Positions 3,630 to 25,807 of a stretch of DNA of 26,196 bases are shown here, piece after piece. The DNA is taken from positions 1-26,196 of IMG/VR virus record IMGVR_UViG_3300037313_001414, one strand, 5' to 3'. Every line of letters begins with the position of its first letter. Position 1 is the first letter of the stretch. Below the pieces are notes generated by a model. The model worked only from the letters and a program-made list of their open reading frames with translations, did no database searches and had not been told where the DNA came from. The DNA is from a virus. Its lineage: Duplodnaviria; Caudoviricetes. The translations under genes and the position numbers were made by a program.

Positions 3630-3716
3630 AAGACACCTTCTTTCAACGCCCCAAGCCCGCCGTCGTCCGTAGACAACAGAAGGCGTGAAGCTTTCGAATT
3701 TTTCGAGCGCAATTGA

Positions 3717-4106
3717 TTAGGCGAACAGTTTCAGCTGTTGCGCCTGTTCTCGTATATTCCGTGCAAGTTCAGTCAAGGCGTTCTCCACCATCGAATAATC
3801 GCGAACAGTTTCATTGACGCTGTTCTCGAACGGTTGATGATTGAACGCATTATTGGAACAAAGGTGGCAACCGCCGAGAATATCTAACCCTTCAATTCCA
3901 TATGCGCGCGCCGTGACGGAAATAATTCCGATGAACAGTTCGCCGCGTTCGAAACGACGGACGTACACTTCTTCAAGTTCTTTATTGTCGAACGAAATAT
4001 CGTCTCGAACGTTCGTTTCACCATCCTCTTCAACTTCAATCGTCACTTCCGCCGAGATTTTAATTCCGTTAACTTCAAGGTCACGTTTTTCAGTTTTAAA
4101 AATCAT
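3717..4106 (-). CDS. Acidic hypothetical early phage protein
   Basis: 129-aa ORF with SD GGAGG upstream; globular-looking sequence. Confidence 0.8.
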   Translation of the reverse strand: MIFKTEKRDLEVNGIKISAEVTIEVEEDGETNVRDDISFDNKELEEVYVRRFERGELFIGIISVTARAYGIEGLDILGGCHLCSNNAFNHQPFENSVNETVRDYSMVENALTELARNIREQAQQLKLFA

Positions 4107-4161
4107 AAATTCAATCCTCCAATGCGTTTTAACTGTCTATACTGTCAATTTGCGACCGCGA

Positions 4162-4251
4162 CTATTCCCATACCGGAATCAAAGCCAGCACGGCGGCAGT
4201 TGCGATTCCAAAACAATTCAACATATCAGGCGTAAATATTAGGTGACTCAT
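4162..4251 (-). CDS. 29-aa hydrophobic peptide (not in ORF track)
   Basis: MSHLIFTPDMLNCFGIATAAVLALIPVWE*; SD GAGGT; directly downstream of the promoter at 4276-4304. Confidence 0.5.
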   Translation of the reverse strand: MSHLIFTPDMLNCFGIATAAVLALIPVWE

Positions 4252-5854: not shown

Positions 5855-6198
5855 CCCCAATCGACACAACCAAGCCAGGCCGCGAACTCGACGCACTCGT
5901 TGCTGAGAAGGTGATGGGTTGGTCCGATTGTCGCTTTAAAGACGGGCGCGTTGTTGATGGGCTCGGAAGAGACCAATACAATAAGACCGCCCAATCAATT
6001 CCACATTACAGCACCGACATCGCCGCCGCTTGGTTGGTTGTTGACGGGTTAATGGCTCAAGGCCTTTCATTCCTCTTAGGTAAGGAATCGGTTGTGTGGC
6101 GAGCGCGATTTTATAAAGGTGATGGGGGCGTGACAATGCCGGGAGACACCGCGCCACACGCCATCTGCCTTGCTGCATTGAAAGCATGTGGTATGTAA
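5851..6198 (+). CDS. Phage ABA-sandwich (BC1872-like) domain protein
   Basis: Recognised motifs GRELDALVAEKVMGW, PHYSTDIAAAWLVV, TAPHAICLAALKA; start ATG 5851 overlaps the upstream stop. Confidence 0.8.
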   Translation: MTPIDTTKPGRELDALVAEKVMGWSDCRFKDGRVVDGLGRDQYNKTAQSIPHYSTDIAAAWLVVDGLMAQGLSFLLGKESVVWRARFYKGDGGVTMPGDTAPHAICLAALKACGM

Positions 6199-6203
6199 TT
6201 CAA

Positions 6204-6315
6204 TGGCGGCGACACGACGCGCGTGTTCTGGTCCACTAGCCCAACCGTCGAAAGACGTACCAGTAGGGAAGGCCCAGCCTAACTTCGGTTGGTAATGGCA
6301 TAATCCAACCCGCCA
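6204..6315 (+). ncRNA. Putative structured non-coding RNA (multibranch, GAAA and cUUCGg tetraloops)
   Basis: Closing helix TGGCGG/CCGCCA; hairpin GACACG/CGTGTT; helix CTGGT/ACCAG enclosing CGTC-GAAA-GACG; arm CCAGCCTAAC-TTCG-GTTGGTAATGG. Confidence 0.6.
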
Positions 6316-6390
6316 ATTTCTAAATCGTCAGAATGTTACAATTACCTGATGGCGTGCCATTGACGGCGCGCCCACCGAGGCTTGTAACAG

Positions 6391-6777
6391 ATGTCAAAAC
6401 GTCGCCCGAAATCAAACCGAGTCGAACACCGAATGGCAGCGTCGCTTGACGCGCTCGCCGAGTTCGAACGCTTTCAAGAAGAAATCCTTCCCATCCTTCA
6501 AACAGCCCTCAAAGAAGGCTGGACTGCTGAAAAGATTTACTCACATCCTAAGGCTCAGGCGCTGCTCGCTGCACGCCAACTCACAATCGGCATCATGAAC
6601 CCGGACCCAGGCAAAGCTCTAGCTGCCATTCAGGACGTGATGAATAGAACGATTGGCAAACCAACTGACAAGGTCGAAGTCAAAGGCAAGCTCGAGAAGA
6701 TGTCCGACGACGAATTGGACGCATTGCTCGCTGCCAAGTTGGCCGATGGGGCGCCCGCCGACGACCAATTGAATTGA
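6391..6777 (+). CDS. Terminase small subunit (putative)
   Basis: Helical 128-aa protein upstream of terL with a C-terminal GKPTDKVEVKGKLEKMSDDELDALL tail typical of TerS; SD GAGG. Confidence 0.65.
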   Translation: MSKRRPKSNRVEHRMAASLDALAEFERFQEEILPILQTALKEGWTAEKIYSHPKAQALLAARQLTIGIMNPDPGKALAAIQDVMNRTIGKPTDKVEVKGKLEKMSDDELDALLAAKLADGAPADDQLN

Positions 6778-11866: not shown

Positions 11867-12337
11867 ATGGAAATCAAAAACGGTAAAAAACCAATTGCTT
11901 CTAAACCTAAAACTATGTCGCCCACATCACTCGATGACATCTTCGGTAACACGCTGGCAGTTTCTCCGGAAATCGCTCGTGCTATTGCATCCAAAGGTAA
12001 TGAATACCGTTGGATTAGCTTCACGAAATACACCCAAATGGGTAACAGTCACGAGCGCGCATGGCGTCCCGTTAAACGTAGCGAATGTGGTATGATTGAC
12101 CCTACCTCCCTCCAAAATGGCTCAGACGTCGATGGTTACATCCGTCGTGGTGACTTGGTTCTCGCGGTTCGCCCGAAAGAACTGGGTGACAAGCATCGTT
12201 CTATTCTGAAGGCTGATGCCAACAGGGCTAAGAACGTGCAGAAAAACCACGCTGATGAGTTACGTCAGTTCGTCAGGCAAGCAGGAATCAATGCGAAGAT
12301 TTCTGAAGGCTATGAAAACGACGGTGAAGAATCATAA
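11867..12337 (+). CDS. Head-module hypothetical protein (GNEYRWI...DLVLA type)
   Basis: 156-aa ORF with SD AAGGA; proteins of this pattern commonly precede gpT-like capsid genes (from memory). Confidence 0.75.
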   Translation: MEIKNGKKPIASKPKTMSPTSLDDIFGNTLAVSPEIARAIASKGNEYRWISFTKYTQMGNSHERAWRPVKRSECGMIDPTSLQNGSDVDGYIRRGDLVLAVRPKELGDKHRSILKADANRAKNVQKNHADELRQFVRQAGINAKISEGYENDGEES

Positions 12338-12521
12338 TCGGCGAAAGCCGAGTAACAATTGCTTTTCTCGCCCGCGGGTAGAGCAAAAAATAAATGGATT
12401 GGATGTTTGTTGAATTGCTTGAGGCGATAGGCGTTTCAAGCAATTCCGTAAGCGGCCAATCTTCAACAAATGAACGCCTGGCGGCAGGTTACCTGAAAGG
12501 GATAACGACTAAGCCGGGCGT
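12338..12521 (+). ncRNA. Putative structured RNA / cis-regulatory leader of major capsid gene
   Basis: At least six helices with G-U pairs, two GAAA tetraloops and a pseudoknot-order pairing, filling the entire 200-nt intergenic gap. Confidence 0.65.
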
Positions 12522-12539
12522 AAAAAAGGAGATACGGAA

Positions 12540-13472
12540 ATGGCCGCACCTGATGCCCTCCGTTCTGGTTATGCCGATTTTGTCGGCTCTGCAATGCTTC
12601 CGGTCCTCGAAGAGACCTTCAGAAGCGAATACAATCAAGCTGCTGGTAAGCGTGAAATGCTTGCTAAAGTTGTGTCGACCGACACCAACATTTGGCAGTA
12701 CACCGAAATGCACGATATGCCGCTCTTCAGCTCCGTTAACGAAGGCGCTGACTATGGCACCGGCCGCATTAAACAGGGTTCGGATAAAACCATCACCGTC
12801 GTTAAATACGGCTTGATGGCGAACTTCTCGGAAGAACTCATCGAAGACTCGAAGTACGGCCACATCGCCGACACTTTGAAAAAGATGGCGAAGTCCGCTC
12901 GCGAGTCCCAGGAAGTCTCTTTCTTTGACTTGCTCAATAACGGCTTTACCTCTACGACGACCGCCGACGGCCAATACTTGTTCGATACGGACCACACGAC
13001 TCCTACCGGAACCGTGACCGTTCGCAATAAGCTTTCGTCCGACTCTGACCTCTCTGTCACCTCTCTCAAGACGATGATTAAAGACTTCCGCACCCAGTTC
13101 AAGGGTGACAGCGGAATCATCTATGATATCAAGCCAAAATACTTGGTTGTGCCAGAAGACCTTCGTATGGACGCTATCGAAATCGTGAAGTCAGAACTTC
13201 TTTCGGGAACGGCTGACAACAACGTTAACTCGATTAAGGACGAAGGTCTCATCGTCGTTGCTTCTCCGCATCTGTCCGACGCTGATGCTTGGTTCCTGCT
13301 TTCCGACAAGGCTGATAACGGCCTCCGTATCGTGTCCCGTAAGGGCCTCGAAACGAAAGCTGCTGGAAGCGACATTGGCTTCGTGAACGACAGCATTTAC
13401 TTCAAGGCTCGTTACCGTGAAGCCGTTGCTGCTGTTCATCACTACGGTGCTTTCGGTACCCCTGGCGCCTGA
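12540..13472 (+). CDS. Major capsid protein (Mu gpT-like, HK97 fold)
   Basis: 310 aa; VNEGADY, KYGLMANFSEELIED, ADGQYLFDTDH, PKYLVVP, SPHLSDADAWFL, G.FGTPGA end; strong SD AAGGAG and biased codons. Confidence 0.9.
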   Translation: MAAPDALRSGYADFVGSAMLPVLEETFRSEYNQAAGKREMLAKVVSTDTNIWQYTEMHDMPLFSSVNEGADYGTGRIKQGSDKTITVVKYGLMANFSEELIEDSKYGHIADTLKKMAKSARESQEVSFFDLLNNGFTSTTTADGQYLFDTDHTTPTGTVTVRNKLSSDSDLSVTSLKTMIKDFRTQFKGDSGIIYDIKPKYLVVPEDLRMDAIEIVKSELLSGTADNNVNSIKDEGLIVVASPHLSDADAWFLLSDKADNGLRIVSRKGLETKAAGSDIGFVNDSIYFKARYREAVAAVHHYGAFGTPGA

Positions 13473-13476
13473 TTGA

Positions 13477-13526
13477 TTTGTTGGTGTGCGGGGGTTGGCT
13501 AGGCCGACTTCCCGCGCCCCGACGAA
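13477..13526 (+). other. Long G-U-rich RNA hairpin between MCP and next gene
   Basis: TTTGTTGG/CCGACGAA, GTGCGGG/CCCGCGC and GGTTGGC/GCCGACT nested; no U-tract; abuts SD AAGGAG. Confidence 0.6.
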
Positions 13527-13884: not shown

Positions 13885-13919
13885 GAGGGGTCGCTCTAAC
13901 GGGTGACCCTTTTTCATTT
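13885..13919 (+). terminator. Rho-independent terminator after capsid genes
   Basis: GAGGGGTCGCTC-TAAC-GGGTGACCCT followed by TTTTCATTT. Confidence 0.8.
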
Positions 13920-13938
13920 CAGCCTTTAGGGGTCTCAC

Positions 13939-14247: not shown

Positions 14248-17200
14248 TGTCGACGTATCAACTTCGCACTTTTGGCGACTTGGTTAATGCCATTCGAGAA
14301 GAAATTCAGATTCAAGCTTCTGATACGACGGCACTGAATCGTATTCGCCGCGACTTGAACATCATTTATCAGGAAGTCGTCGGACGCAAGAATTGGTGGT
14401 GGCTGCAGGGCCATACTACCGTACAGCTTCCAGTTTATTCGTCAACAGGGACGGCATCTGTTGCGGTTGGCAGCGCTTCCATCACTCTCACATCCGCGCC
14501 CCTTGGGATTTCTCGCAAAGGCTATAAGTTCGCGATAGATGGTTTTGACGAAATCTACACAATTGAATCTCATACCGCAGGCGCGACCTCCCTGAAGCTT
14601 GACCGCGAATTCACGGGCGCAACAAACACAACTGCAACTTATAAGATTTGGACCGATAGGGTGCCGCTCCCTGTTGATTGTAAGGAAACAATTCGTGCAT
14701 GGCATGATTACCACTCGAATCCGTTGGAGTGCGTCGGGCTTAATGAGTTTCGCCGCATCAGTGGTCAAGGCCCACGCTCACAAGGCAAGCCCCTCTACTA
14801 CGCAACGGCCGATTTCATCGATGCGGCCCAAACCTCAAGTATCGAAAGCCTTCCCGCTCTCAGTACGCGCGCCTCTTCTGGCGTCGTGAAGACGCTCGTT
14901 TTTGCTTCAACCCTTCCTTCAAGCGTAACGGACGCTGTTGATGCGGGTGCGCCCTATCGCATTCGCATCAGCGACGCAGGCGAGCCGTCTTATAACGGCG
15001 ACTTTTTAATCAATACGGCATCGGGAACAACGATTACATACATCAGCCCGATTGCGACTCAAGAGTCGGCAACGGCAGACACATCACTTACGGTCGAAAG
15101 TCTAAATCAGGAAAGCGCAACGAGTCGTTATCGTGAATTGTTTCTCTTTCCAGCAATCGATACCGGCCGCACATCCATTCATGTTGACTATCTGAAGCGG
15201 GCGCTCGACCTTACAAACGACAGCGACGAGCCCGCTATGCCGGTTGAAGACCGCTCGGTTCTTCTTTATGGCGCCCTTGAGCGCGCCTGGCGTCGTCACA
15301 GGAATAAAGAAGAGTCAGACACCAACGGCGCCCTCTATCGGGACAAGCTTGCGCAGATGGCAAGTAAGCTTCAAGACACCTTTGAAAAGCCACGCCTCAA
15401 ACCATCCACCGCATACCTGTCCACAAAGCGTTCAATTCCAAACAGCCGCAGGCTCGACGCAACGATTCCGGGCCTTAACGGTGGGGGAGCAAGCGGCGCA
15501 ATCGTTAAAGGAACGCCAAACTCAGTTACAATTTTCAACAGTTTGGGTGAAACGGAAGGCAGTTCCGTCACAACGACCCAACTGAATACACTTCTCGGCA
15601 TAGATTCAAACGTCCAAGACCAATTGGATGATAAGGCAGACCTTGGCGCCACACTCTCCGCCAGCAAAGCAGTCGTTACTGACAGCAGCGGAAATTTGGT
15701 TACTGCGACAGCAACAACGACTGAAATCAATTATTTGGCCGGAGTGACGAGCGCAATCCAAACCCAGCTCGATTCCAAACTTACATCAGTGGGCGCGCTT
15801 ACACCAGACACAGCACTTCAAGCCAATGGCGCGGGCGCGATTGCATCGTCGTCTGTAACAGCGACTGAGTTGGGTTATGTCAGTGGTGTAACGAGTGCAA
15901 TCCAAACACAACTTGATGCTAAGGCTCTTGATTCGGACCTCGATGCACACACGGGCGCAAGTTCTGGCGCGCACGCAGCATCAGCTATCAGCAATACGCC
16001 TTCTGGGAACCTTGCATCGACTGATGTTCAAGCTGCATTGAATGAGTTGCAGACTGATATCGATACGCGCGCAACTTCCGCTGCATTGACGGCTCATACG
16101 GGCGCAAGTTCTGGCGCGCACGCAGCAAGTGCTATTAGCAACACGCCATCAGGTAACCTTGCTGCATCTGACGTACAAACTGCACTGAACGAACTTCAAA
16201 CCGATGTTGATACTCGCGCTACTAGCTCAGCGCTAACAACGCATACAAGCGCATCAAGCGGCGTTCATGGTGTTACAGGCTCAGTCGTTGGGACTTCTGA
16301 CGCCCAGACTTTGACAAATAAAACACTTGCGGTCACGTCTAACAGTATAACGGCAACAACTGGCAAAGCAGCCCAATTTAACGCAAGTACGGGCGCGCTT
16401 GAAGCCGCATCAGTTACGACAACGGAGCTTGGTTATGTTGCGGGTGTAACGAGCGCGATTCAAACACAAATTGATTCCAAGCCGACAAAAGGCACCATCA
16501 ACGCGAGCAAAGCGCTCGTTTCCGATGCTTCAAGTAATGTTGTTTCTTCATCAGTTACTTCAACGGAACTTGGATACGTTTCTGGTGTAACGAGCGCGAT
16601 TCAAACACAGATTAACACCAAGGCGGACTCGTCAACTCTTACGACACATACAAGTGCAAGCAGCGGCGTTCATGGTGTCACGGGTTCTGTTGTCGGAACG
16701 ACTGATACGCAAACGCTGTCAAACAAGACGTTAAGCGATGCGCTCACGGTTGCACAGGTTTCAACGCCATCAAACCCGTCGTCTGGTTACAACAAGTTTT
16801 ACGCGAAGTCAGACGGCAAGCTTTACACCTTAACGAGTGCTGGTGCTGAAAGCGCAGTCGGTTCGGGCGGCCAGGGCGGAATCAACCTCATCGCTCTTGA
16901 TACAAGTTGGGGCATCACGAAAACGACAAACAGTGACGCTGAAACATCAGTAGGTGATTGGGTTGCTTACGCTGATGCTGCTGGAACTTCACCGGTTGAC
17001 ATGACCGGCGGAAGCCCAAATACGACGATTGCGCGCGATACTTCAAGCCCGCTCAATGGCGCAGCCCATTTCACAATGACTGTATCGAGTGGCGCTACAA
17101 GACAGGGCGAAGGCGTATCGTGTACGGCAAATGTCCCGCCTGCTTACCGTGGCAAGACAGTTTCGTTTCAGTTTCCATTCACGGCGACTGGCACCATCGT

Positions 17201-23737: not shown

Positions 23738-25807
23738 ATGAACGAGGCATTTTTTAAACGATTCGGTGGGGGCGCTGAACAACAAGCCGCACCGGCTGCG
23801 CAACAATCCGCCCCAGCTGAACAACAAGCTGCGCCAGCATCAAATGATTTCATGTCTCGTTTCGGTAAAAATCTTGACCCCGCCCAATCGGCCCCATCCA
23901 TCTACGATTCAAGCGAAGAGGGCGCAAGCCCTGAAACCGCACTCAACGTATCGCCTGTTGGAGTTGCCGACCGCGCCGCCATTGGTATCGGTAACCAAGC
24001 AGGCGCGCTTCAATACCTAAAGACGAAATTCGACGATGCACAAGTAACGAAAGAGGGTGCCATTGTCGTTAAGAAAGGTAACACTTGGCATCAGGTTGAC
24101 CCATCGGGTCTCGGCGGCGGCTCGTTACTCGATAAGGCAAAAGAGTTTGGCAAAGACGTCTCCGACCTAGGCGACGTTGCCGCAAACGCAATCGGTTCTA
24201 GTGTGGGCGCCGCCGTTGGTTTATTTGCAGGAGGAGCAGGAGCAATTCCCGGCGCAGGTATTGGCGGTGGACTTGCAGCAACTGCTCGTATCCAAGCCGC
24301 AAAGTATCTCGGCACTTACTCAGCAACCCCTGAAGACGAATTGAAAGACATTGGGCTTGAAGCGATTCTGAGTGCAGGAGGCGAGGGCATTGCACGTGGA
24401 ATCAAAGCAGTAGCTACCTCAAAACCAGTCGTTGATAAGGTTGGGCTCGCGCTCGATTGGATTAAAAACAACGCTAGCCCTGCTGCAAAGGAAGCTGTTG
24501 CTACGATGATTTCTGCCGTTAACCCAGAGATAAAGAAGGATAGTGCGAAAGCCCTTGTTGAGAACGGTAAAGCTGTCATGTCCAAACTCGATTCGGCCAT
24601 CAGTGCTGTGAAGGAAAGCGATGCTGCTGTGCCCCTGAATGTTCAAGAAACTCTCAAAAAACGAGCAGGGGATGCTGTCGGTGCTCTATTCGATAAGCCA
24701 CGCCGCGCGCTAAGCGCCGTCTTTGACCGCGAAGAAAAAGAATTGCTTGCAAACGTTCCGGCAGGATTTCAAGCGGAAGTTGCGCCCGCTATTAATAAAG
24801 CCATGGGCGGACTCGCTGAACGAGGATTTGTAAAACCAATCGTTAAAAGCGAATCGGGCGAAATCGTTGGCTACAAGCTTGGTGACATGAATGCTATCAA
24901 CGAGCAGTTGAAGCACGCCTACAGTAACGGCGCCGATGGCATGAAAGTTATGCGGGACTTGAAACAGTTTGTGGACCTGGCAAACGAGCGGCTGCAAAAG
25001 GACGGTTTAAAGGGCGCCGACGCTGCTGAATCAATCATTCAAACCCGCAGAGCTTTTGACAAGTTCTATTACACAACCGTTAGAGCTAATGAAGCAATGC
25101 GTGAAGCATTGATGCCTATTAGCGGCGCCTTGCGCGACGACTTGGTGTCGACCTTGGGTAAGGCCGGGACAGATGTCGCTAACAAGTATGCTGCAATGAA
25201 CAGCAAATACGCAACGATGCTGCCGCATGTGGCCGAAGCCGACCGCGTAATGCGCCTCTATAACGGCAAAAACGCCTTCGTTAATAAGCTTATGGGCGAC
25301 GATGCAAGCAATGCAAAGAATCTTGTTAGCGTAATGGAGCAATTAAAAGGTAAGGCCGGAACGAACCTCGCAACTGATTTGAATCAAACTGTTGCCGCAC
25401 AAGACTTTGTTAAAGCCTTCCCTCACTTGTCATTCAAGAAAATCGGTGTTGCATCGGCAATCGGTTACGGCGCAAGCCATGGTGTCCTTGGACCGCTGGC
25501 ACTTGCAGGCACCATCCCAGCCGCAGCAATGCAGTCGGGCCGTCTTGTTGGAAGGACCGTTGCTGGCGCGCAGGGCGCAGTCCAGGCTGCATCAAGCGCA
25601 GCCGCCGCCTCGCTTCCATATGCACGCCAGTTCGGCACTCTAATGAAGTCCCTTTCAACCGAACAAATGCGCGAGCTAATGATGCATCCTGATGCCTTTC
25701 CGAAGTTGCTACAAGGAACAGCACTCGCTTCCCAGCGTGAAGAACAAATGAAACAACAACTCCTTGAAAACCACGGCGTCATCCCACAGCAAGGAGGTGA
25801 CCAATGA
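23738..25807 (+). CDS. Internal virion / DNA ejection protein 3 (putative)
   Basis: 689 aa, Ala-rich, glycine-zipper segment GSSVGAAVGLFAGGAGAIPGAGIGGG; SD AAGGAG. Confidence 0.7.
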   Translation: MNEAFFKRFGGGAEQQAAPAAQQSAPAEQQAAPASNDFMSRFGKNLDPAQSAPSIYDSSEEGASPETALNVSPVGVADRAAIGIGNQAGALQYLKTKFDDAQVTKEGAIVVKKGNTWHQVDPSGLGGGSLLDKAKEFGKDVSDLGDVAANAIGSSVGAAVGLFAGGAGAIPGAGIGGGLAATARIQAAKYLGTYSATPEDELKDIGLEAILSAGGEGIARGIKAVATSKPVVDKVGLALDWIKNNASPAAKEAVATMISAVNPEIKKDSAKALVENGKAVMSKLDSAISAVKESDAAVPLNVQETLKKRAGDAVGALFDKPRRALSAVFDREEKELLANVPAGFQAEVAPAINKAMGGLAERGFVKPIVKSESGEIVGYKLGDMNAINEQLKHAYSNGADGMKVMRDLKQFVDLANERLQKDGLKGADAAESIIQTRRAFDKFYYTTVRANEAMREALMPISGALRDDLVSTLGKAGTDVANKYAAMNSKYATMLPHVAEADRVMRLYNGKNAFVNKLMGDDASNAKNLVSVMEQLKGKAGTNLATDLNQTVAAQDFVKAFPHLSFKKIGVASAIGYGASHGVLGPLALAGTIPAAAMQSGRLVGRTVAGAQGAVQAASSAAAASLPYARQFGTLMKSLSTEQMRELMMHPDAFPKLLQGTALASQREEQMKQQLLENHGVIPQQGGDQ

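Follow-up and report, generated by a model that had tools for sequence, protein, structure and literature searches.

The DNA analysed here, hereafter the window, is a 26,196 nt stretch of an IMG/VR virus record (IMGVR_UViG_3300037313_001414; Duplodnaviria, Caudoviricetes) and represents a 26 kb phage fragment which, taken over its whole length, is estimated to be ~55% complete. Its genes include a terminase, a portal, a 233 a.a. ORF, a 156 a.a. ORF, and, after a gap of 202 nt (nt. 12338–12539), a gpT-like major capsid gene (nt. 12540–13472, + strand; PF25209, PF10124, and PHROG 371 major head protein). The 233 a.a. ORF, which displayed no family match, was named scaffold from its position alone. 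The 156 a.a. ORF (nt. 11867–12337, + strand; an ORF call with 26 homologs) encodes a conserved phage protein with no family match at E ≤ 0.001. The structural model of this protein (pLDDT 73.6) displayed no recognisable fold and no Foldseek match at E ≤ 0.001, the best VIA comparison (Z 4.8) involving a coiled helix only, and the fold search speaks neither for nor against RNA binding. Between the capsid gene and a downstream 104 a.a. gene, we noted a 22 bp hairpin (nt. 13477–13526, + strand; −33.8 kcal/mol), and after the 104 a.a. gene an intrinsic-terminator-like site (nt. 13885–13920, + strand), recognised by consensus match only. The window is present in three DNA sequencing runs from soil or rhizosphere, two of which may be its source, and no RNA run is listed among its holders. 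Within the gap, no variant letters occur in the three DNA runs.

A preliminary description of this DNA had listed a series of helices in the gap, all of which are present with the positions and pairs it gave: H1 (5 bp), H2 (7 + 4 bp), A:A′ (7 bp), B:B′ (10 bp, or 11 bp when lengthened by one pair), a 15 bp hairpin, a 3 bp mini-hairpin, and a terminal stem. Its statement that the structure fills the entire gap is a fair one, with the terminal stem ending just 5′ of the A-run and GGAG that precede the capsid gene. Folding of nt. 12320–12545 gave −81.5 kcal/mol on the plus strand (z −5.17), a value that 0 of 200 shuffles equalled, compared with z −2.63 and 2 of 200 shuffles as good on the minus strand, which supports the proposed signal at the level of the plus-strand RNA. 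When the window was scanned for folding (218 segments of 120 nt, 12 shuffles each), the gap ranked among the strongest segments, although a few coding stretches equalled or surpassed it. Strong 120 nt folders inside coding genes were noted at nt. 14881–15000 (+ strand), nt. 25081–25200 (− strand), and nt. 13321–13440 (− strand), with z of −4 to −7, and nt. 1321–1440 fold strongly on both strands (120 nt; z −4 to −7, 12 shuffles).

The predicted fold is nested, comprising H1, H2, one rod, a linker, and the terminal stem. H1 (nt. 12338–12351, + strand) is a GAAA-loop hairpin positioned directly after the stop codon, with a pair probability of 0.74–0.84, and H2 (nt. 12359–12386, + strand), identified from sequence and fold, is a 7 + 4 bp hairpin containing two G-U pairs. 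These are followed by an A/U-rich linker (nt. 12387–12395, + strand), which is single-stranded in the fold and may be a candidate endonuclease entry site. The long irregular rod (nt. 12396–12462, + strand; −34.3 kcal/mol, about 28–30 bp) is built from A:A′ (7 bp), a 1 × 1 loop, a 6 bp G-U-rich stem, a 2 × 2 loop, and the 15 bp hairpin. The terminal stem (nt. 12474–12521, + strand), the most conserved part of the RNA, is folded as 8–9 bp, a 5 × 6 internal loop in which G and A residues are conserved, and an upper stem with a 3′ bulge. The A-run and GGAG Shine–Dalgarno then occupy nt. 12522–12531 (+ strand).

A second copy of this leader was found on the metagenome contig L057, the capsid protein of which is 72% identical to that of the window. 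The contig holds 179 nt upstream of the capsid gene before it ends, and the comparison covers the A-rich linker onward, the H1/H2 region lying beyond the contig end. The L057 leader is laid out as an A-rich linker at the place matching that of the window, a 9 + 14 bp rod, a short hairpin, a terminal stem with an internal loop, an A-run, and the same GGAG, and its strand bias in folding is sharper than that of the window (z −6.3 to −6.4 on the plus strand, −0.6 on the minus strand). This retention of layout and terminal stem supports the proposal, made in the preliminary description, of a capsid-leader RNA placed in cis on the plus strand. The two terminal stems align without gaps across 14 pairs, with 27 of 28 cells paired (8 pairs invariant, 2 with a change on one side, 3 with double changes, and 1 broken). 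Slid alignments reached 25–43% pairing, versus 96% observed, and a shuffle control on the pair count (59/500) was not significant with two rows. At the level of sequence, 18 of 36 independent columns of the terminal stem are identical (P = 0.003), and the end of the stem lies 18 nt from the AUG in the window and 17 nt in L057. A position 17–18 nt before the AUG is roughly where the 5′ border of an initiating ribosome falls. The rods, which differ in sequence, are not alignable beyond their ends. Among the loci collected (~980 kb), a strong stem directly 5′ of A4 plus GGAG at a capsid start was seen in the window and L057 only (of 4 distinct matches overall). A frameshift at the A-run was also considered, in which a 140-codon ORF (nt. 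12394–12816, + strand) would slip by −1 into the capsid frame at A_AAA_AAG, and was rejected, as every one of the three frames is interrupted by stops in L057 and the phase there differs.

The order A-B-A′-B′ had been read in the preliminary description as a pseudoknot, a reading that the analysis does not support. The alternative helix of B (nt. 12404–12414) with B′ (nt. 12462–12472; together nt. 12404–12472, + strand) is present but disfavoured, and is not kept in the single homolog. In the nested ensemble its probability is ~0, with nt. 12404–12409 pairing instead with nt. 12449–12454, and the mini-hairpin likewise has a probability of ~0; this inner stem uses bases that had been given to B and the mini-hairpin, in a model which cannot form pseudoknots and which shows competing pairing only. 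Nested folds using B:B′ instead reach −21.8 to −25.1 kcal/mol, versus −34.3 kcal/mol for the rod, while three pseudoknot variants were estimated by hand, using a Dirks–Pierce-type penalty, at −27.4 to −29.2 kcal/mol versus the same nested rod. It appears improbable that A:A′ and B:B′ together make up the functional structure, with tertiary contacts or a ligand stabilising it. The helix is sizeable (11 bp, −9.6 kcal/mol) and was matched by 35 of 3000 shuffles of the 12 nt linker (a test chosen after the fact), and the estimated difference between pseudoknot and nested fold is only about 5–7 kcal/mol. However, when the whole gap was shuffled, 104 of 300 sequences contained a helix of ≥10 bp with −9 kcal/mol or better, linkers of 0–2 nt on both sides of the pseudoknot would force the helices side by side (as reasoned from sequence), and L057, a single homolog, keeps an A:A′-like helix and shows a local hairpin at the matching place with no crossing helix. 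We regard the pseudoknot as possible, not favoured.

The capsid protein has 641 homologs at E ≤ 1e-20, and ~35 closer capsid proteins, 59–84% identical, exist. Capsid scans of viral contigs returned no relative above 59% identity over the full gene, the metagenome contigs provided L057 (72%) and L058 (60%), and the genome contigs provided one locus. No third copy of the RNA was obtained from two pattern scans of viral contigs for the terminal stem (0 matches), from a two-sequence covariance model run against 99 + 80 sources (best other E 0.11), or from blastn against annotated phages (chance matches only), and a leader like that of L057 was not found in the three DNA runs holding the window. 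In L057 and L058, the capsid gene is followed directly by a short gene, with no hairpin in between; by eye, nt. 1107–1732 of L057 apparently encode two tandem paralogs resembling the 104 a.a. gene, of which the window has one.

The RNA had been proposed to be undescribed, and no Rfam 15 family matched within the window at the gathering threshold, the best score in the gap being that of HrrF (20.3 bits versus a threshold of 77, E 0.27); the L057 leader likewise has no Rfam match. The Mu-gpT-DE motif is associated with gpT-like capsid genes and lies downstream of the capsid gene. Its model (RF03012) gave 0 matches in the window at E ≤ 10, including at the 13477–13526 hairpin. Closer in arrangement are GP20-a (RF02991), GP20-b (RF03003), and the candidates in the compared portions of PMC10690425 (passages and one supplementary table), which are candidate cis-regulatory structured phage RNAs ending ≤25 nt from the start of a head gene, as here; the class set out in those passages, a covarying structure ending ≤25 nt from the start codon, takes in the present RNA on the strength of two sequences only. 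GP20-a lies upstream of the GP20 scaffold gene, whereas the gene downstream here is a gpT-like capsid gene, and its model had 0 matches. No row of the table from PMC10690425 names a gpT capsid, and identity with one of the candidates of that study is possible. The main text of PMC5737381 mentions neither gpT nor GP20, PMC12371167 cites the T7 gene 10 leader only, and the literature search returned no description of the present element. We conclude that the gap holds a real, selected, and uncatalogued capsid-leader RNA with a predicted nested fold, of which two copies are known.

The setting of this RNA was examined across relatives, using loci drawn from three kinds of contig (viral, metagenome, and genome). 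The upstream ORF is in view at 67 of 72 distinct capsid starts, and the gap is ≤33 nt in 64 of these 67. A gene of ~162 a.a. lies between the 156 a.a. homolog and the capsid gene in 57 of 61 distinct loci, and the model of its product (pLDDT 90.2) matches the HFTV1 capsid stabilisation protein (Foldseek E 4e-5) and, more weakly, other cement proteins. On the basis of this model, we have assigned it as a putative capsid cement gene; no homolog was found in the window, which covers ~55% of a genome. The four loci without the putative cement gene at this place have gaps of 202 nt (window), 71 nt (L058), 24 nt (L095), and 16 nt (L070). In a capsid tree (FastTree, midpoint-rooted, and read without support values; L095 was left out as truncated), L070, L058, L057, and the window form one branch in which L070 and L058 split first. 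Given that these two early-splitting loci have neither the putative cement gene at this place nor the RNA, the RNA likely arose after cement-gene loss and was not a direct replacement. The 156 a.a. protein, which was considered as a regulator, is found in relatives both with and without the RNA. A further locus with the layout of L070, L096, is a head module in an archaeal genome bin and is probably a misbinned phage contig.

An extended −10 motif lies inside the 156 a.a. gene (nt. 12088–12096, + strand), with 13 of 61 distinct loci carrying it in the same place. Judged by its sequence, this is the likely capsid promoter, with a start at ~nt. 12103, and the transcript is predicted to end at the terminator-like site beginning at nt. 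13885, near nt. 13900. With such a start, the gap RNA would be the 3′ part of a predicted leader of ~437 nt, and the 3′ half of the 156 a.a. gene is predicted to double as the untranslated 5′ part of that leader; within the gap itself, no plus-strand promoter or terminator was found. This 3′ half (nt. 12127–12343, + strand) forms a multi-hairpin domain of its own in the predicted fold (z −3.35), and structure right after the in-gene promoter is not special, with a mean z of −1.2 in the 13 loci versus −0.6 in 48. Relatives with a gap of 50–240 nt after the 156 a.a. gene show an extended −10 in 23 of 41 long gaps, where 6.3 are expected, and in 29 of 29 cases these gap-promoter relatives have a GC-rich hairpin that lies 3′ of the predicted start and 5′ of the ribosome site (counted without a shuffle control, with L033 and L050 dropped). 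Short-gap relatives often carry the motif inside the 156 a.a. gene, 49–64 nt before a conserved arginine codon.

Over the 61 loci, the motif is placed in the gene only in 13, in the gap only in 31, in both in 0, and in neither in 17 (Fisher p 2e-5, a value overstated by in-gene cases falling in two branches of the capsid tree and by patterns chosen post hoc). The in-gene motif is spelled by different amino acids across relatives, and an in-gene −10 is encodable at this place in 19 of 26 close proteins, versus 9 of 1229 background positions. Besides the window, the carriers are L012, L015, L016, L017, L027, L034, L042, L043, L047, L058, L065, and L074. Two loci, L050 (nt. 3715–4190) and L022 (nt. 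6259–6496), have long inserts (475 and 236 nt, respectively) between the 156 a.a. homolog and the putative cement gene, upstream of the promoter motif.

The explanation of the leader we favour, tentatively, is that it may be a cis-acting element which shields the capsid mRNA and keeps its ribosome site insulated. The capsid operon would be transcribed from the in-gene extended −10, giving the ~437 nt leader and an end near nt. 13900, and host endonucleases would probably trim this leader in the A/U linker or in the rod, the length of which is sufficient for RNase III. A paired 5′ end after trimming would slow 5′-dependent decay, H1 and H2 would cap the upstream message, and the terminal stem would prevent upstream RNA from reaching the A-run and GGAG, with the outcome that capsid subunits would be numerous compared with scaffold and portal. 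The leader could then be viewed as an expanded counterpart of the lone GC-rich hairpin found in relatives between the capsid-operon promoter and the ribosome site. Passages of PMC3997798 describe hairpins at the 5′ end as slowing mRNA decay and processing as uncoupling the genes of an operon, and those of PMC6121014 describe RNase III as needing ~11 bp and as cutting a T7 hairpin that lies between genes and contains an internal loop. The window, with 15 bp in a rod of 28 pairs, and L057, with 14 bp in 23 pairs, both exceed this length, and by analogy the rod is a candidate RNase III processing site. It resembles T7 R1.1, as presented in the same passages (PMC6121014), in being a long intergenic hairpin with internal loops and above the ~11 bp minimum, and is unlike it in having several extra hairpins and a cleavage that is predicted only.

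Against a protective role stands the finding of two copies only, and against the need for a 200 nt structure the relatives lacking the putative cement gene, which manage with gaps of 16, 24, and 71 nt. The cost of opening the ribosome site, at 5.6 kcal/mol, is ordinary and not low (6.0–12.0 kcal/mol for nine other genes of the window, and 10.7 kcal/mol for L057). In the terminal stem, the conservation of loop letters hints at a bound partner, of which a purely protective role would have no need. The main rival builds on such a partner: a protein of the phage or the host would attach to the internal loop, next to the ribosome site, and/or an anti-Shine–Dalgarno segment (nt. 12452–12464, + strand) would toggle between A (on) and the Shine–Dalgarno and start codon (off), with which it can pair at nt. 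12528–12533 and nt. 12541–12547, so timing capsid synthesis. We hold this to be possible, if on the unlikely side. In both copies, the unpaired G and A of the terminal stem are conserved with identical spacing; for transcripts ending at nt. 12550–12560, the off state and A:A′ have about the same energy, and removal of A brings the opening cost to 13–14 kcal/mol. However, the anti-ribosome-site pairing of the window was matched by 109 of 1000 shuffles, the matching pairing in L057 is 10 kcal/mol worse and not kept, and no candidate binder covaries with the RNA. Beyond nt. 12570, moreover, the off state is negligible (P ≤ 0.003 once the coding sequence folds) and A:A′ is dominant (P ~0.99). A hairpin lying this close to the ribosome site could serve as an operator, as in T4 gene 43, and the possible pairing of an upstream strand with the Shine–Dalgarno across a stem recalls the leader of the MS2 maturation gene (PMC4615214). 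Unlike MS2, this is a DNA phage in which the on state comes first and wins at full length, and the pairing is at chance level and unconserved.

In 12 of 28 gap-promoter relatives at p ≤ 0.05, and in 7 at p ≤ 0.01, the first ribosome site of the operon pairs with sequence lying 5′ of the predicted start, a count which leaves out L033, L050, and one locus with <15 nt and which is drawn from loci sharing ancestry. The lock-bearing loci include L010, L035, L064, L032, L019, L071, and L094, in the gap from the 156 a.a. homolog to the putative cement gene. The arrangement resembles the locks of T4 gene e, soc, and I-TevI described in passages of PMC3014915, in that sequence upstream of the promoter pairs with the ribosome site; by analogy with gene e, read-through messages would be locked in these relatives and promoter-started ones open. 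The capsid-locus family thus appears to gate its ribosome site, whereas no such lock is seen in the window 5′ of the predicted start (p 0.89). A combined reading, in which the terminal stem would be a protein operator and the rod a switch, arisen after cement-gene loss and the move of the promoter into the upstream gene and replacing the lock of relatives, seems to us doubtful. We give still less credence to an independent non-coding RNA or a self-cleaving ribozyme, options also raised in the preliminary description, perhaps standing in for the cement protein. Its size, stability, and position in the slot of the putative cement gene would suit such an RNA, and A:A′, with 7 bp and a G-U first pair, is like P1 of HDV. 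Arguing against it, L070 and L058, which branch earlier, have neither that gene at this place nor the RNA, and the structure has no plus-strand promoter or terminator of its own and leads directly into the ribosome site in the window and L057 alike. A ribozyme finds no HDV-like or hammerhead core here. HDV-like ribozymes are described in passages of PMC10879173 as a nested double pseudoknot with P1, P2, P3/L3, and a catalytic C first in J4/2; an HDV-like or theta ribozyme is not supported, there being no RF02682 match and neither a second, nested pseudoknot nor an L3-type loop ahead of A′. The only L3-like hexamer lies inside H2, with none in L057, and A′ runs directly into B′. The conserved hammerhead core motif has no match in either leader. 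The least credible reading, that these are unselected or DNA-level palindromes left after cement-gene loss, would fit the unalignable rods of the two copies and the other strong folders in the coding DNA of the window, but is opposed by the strand bias, the compensatory changes, and the conserved distance to the AUG.

The preliminary description had also joined this leader to a terS-proximal RNA in an RNA-based layer of control, a proposal that finds little support here. The terS-proximal region (nt. 6198–6392, + strand) folds weakly (z −2.0) and shares no sequence with the gap RNA; it contains an extended −10 motif at nt. 6334, and has no Rfam match and no blastn relative among the loci.

To our knowledge, the means by which capsid protein is made in excess over scaffold and portal from adjacent genes have rarely been mapped outside model phages. 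At the present locus, one spot appears to have received several solutions, namely a gap promoter with a 5′ hairpin, a T4-like lock, and a promoter hidden in the upstream gene, with the branch of the window carrying a 200 nt structured leader where the putative cement gene used to be. The context (the cement slot, the likely in-gene promoter, and the apparent lock of relatives) is more interesting than the RNA itself, and together they offer a compact, testable case of leader evolution.
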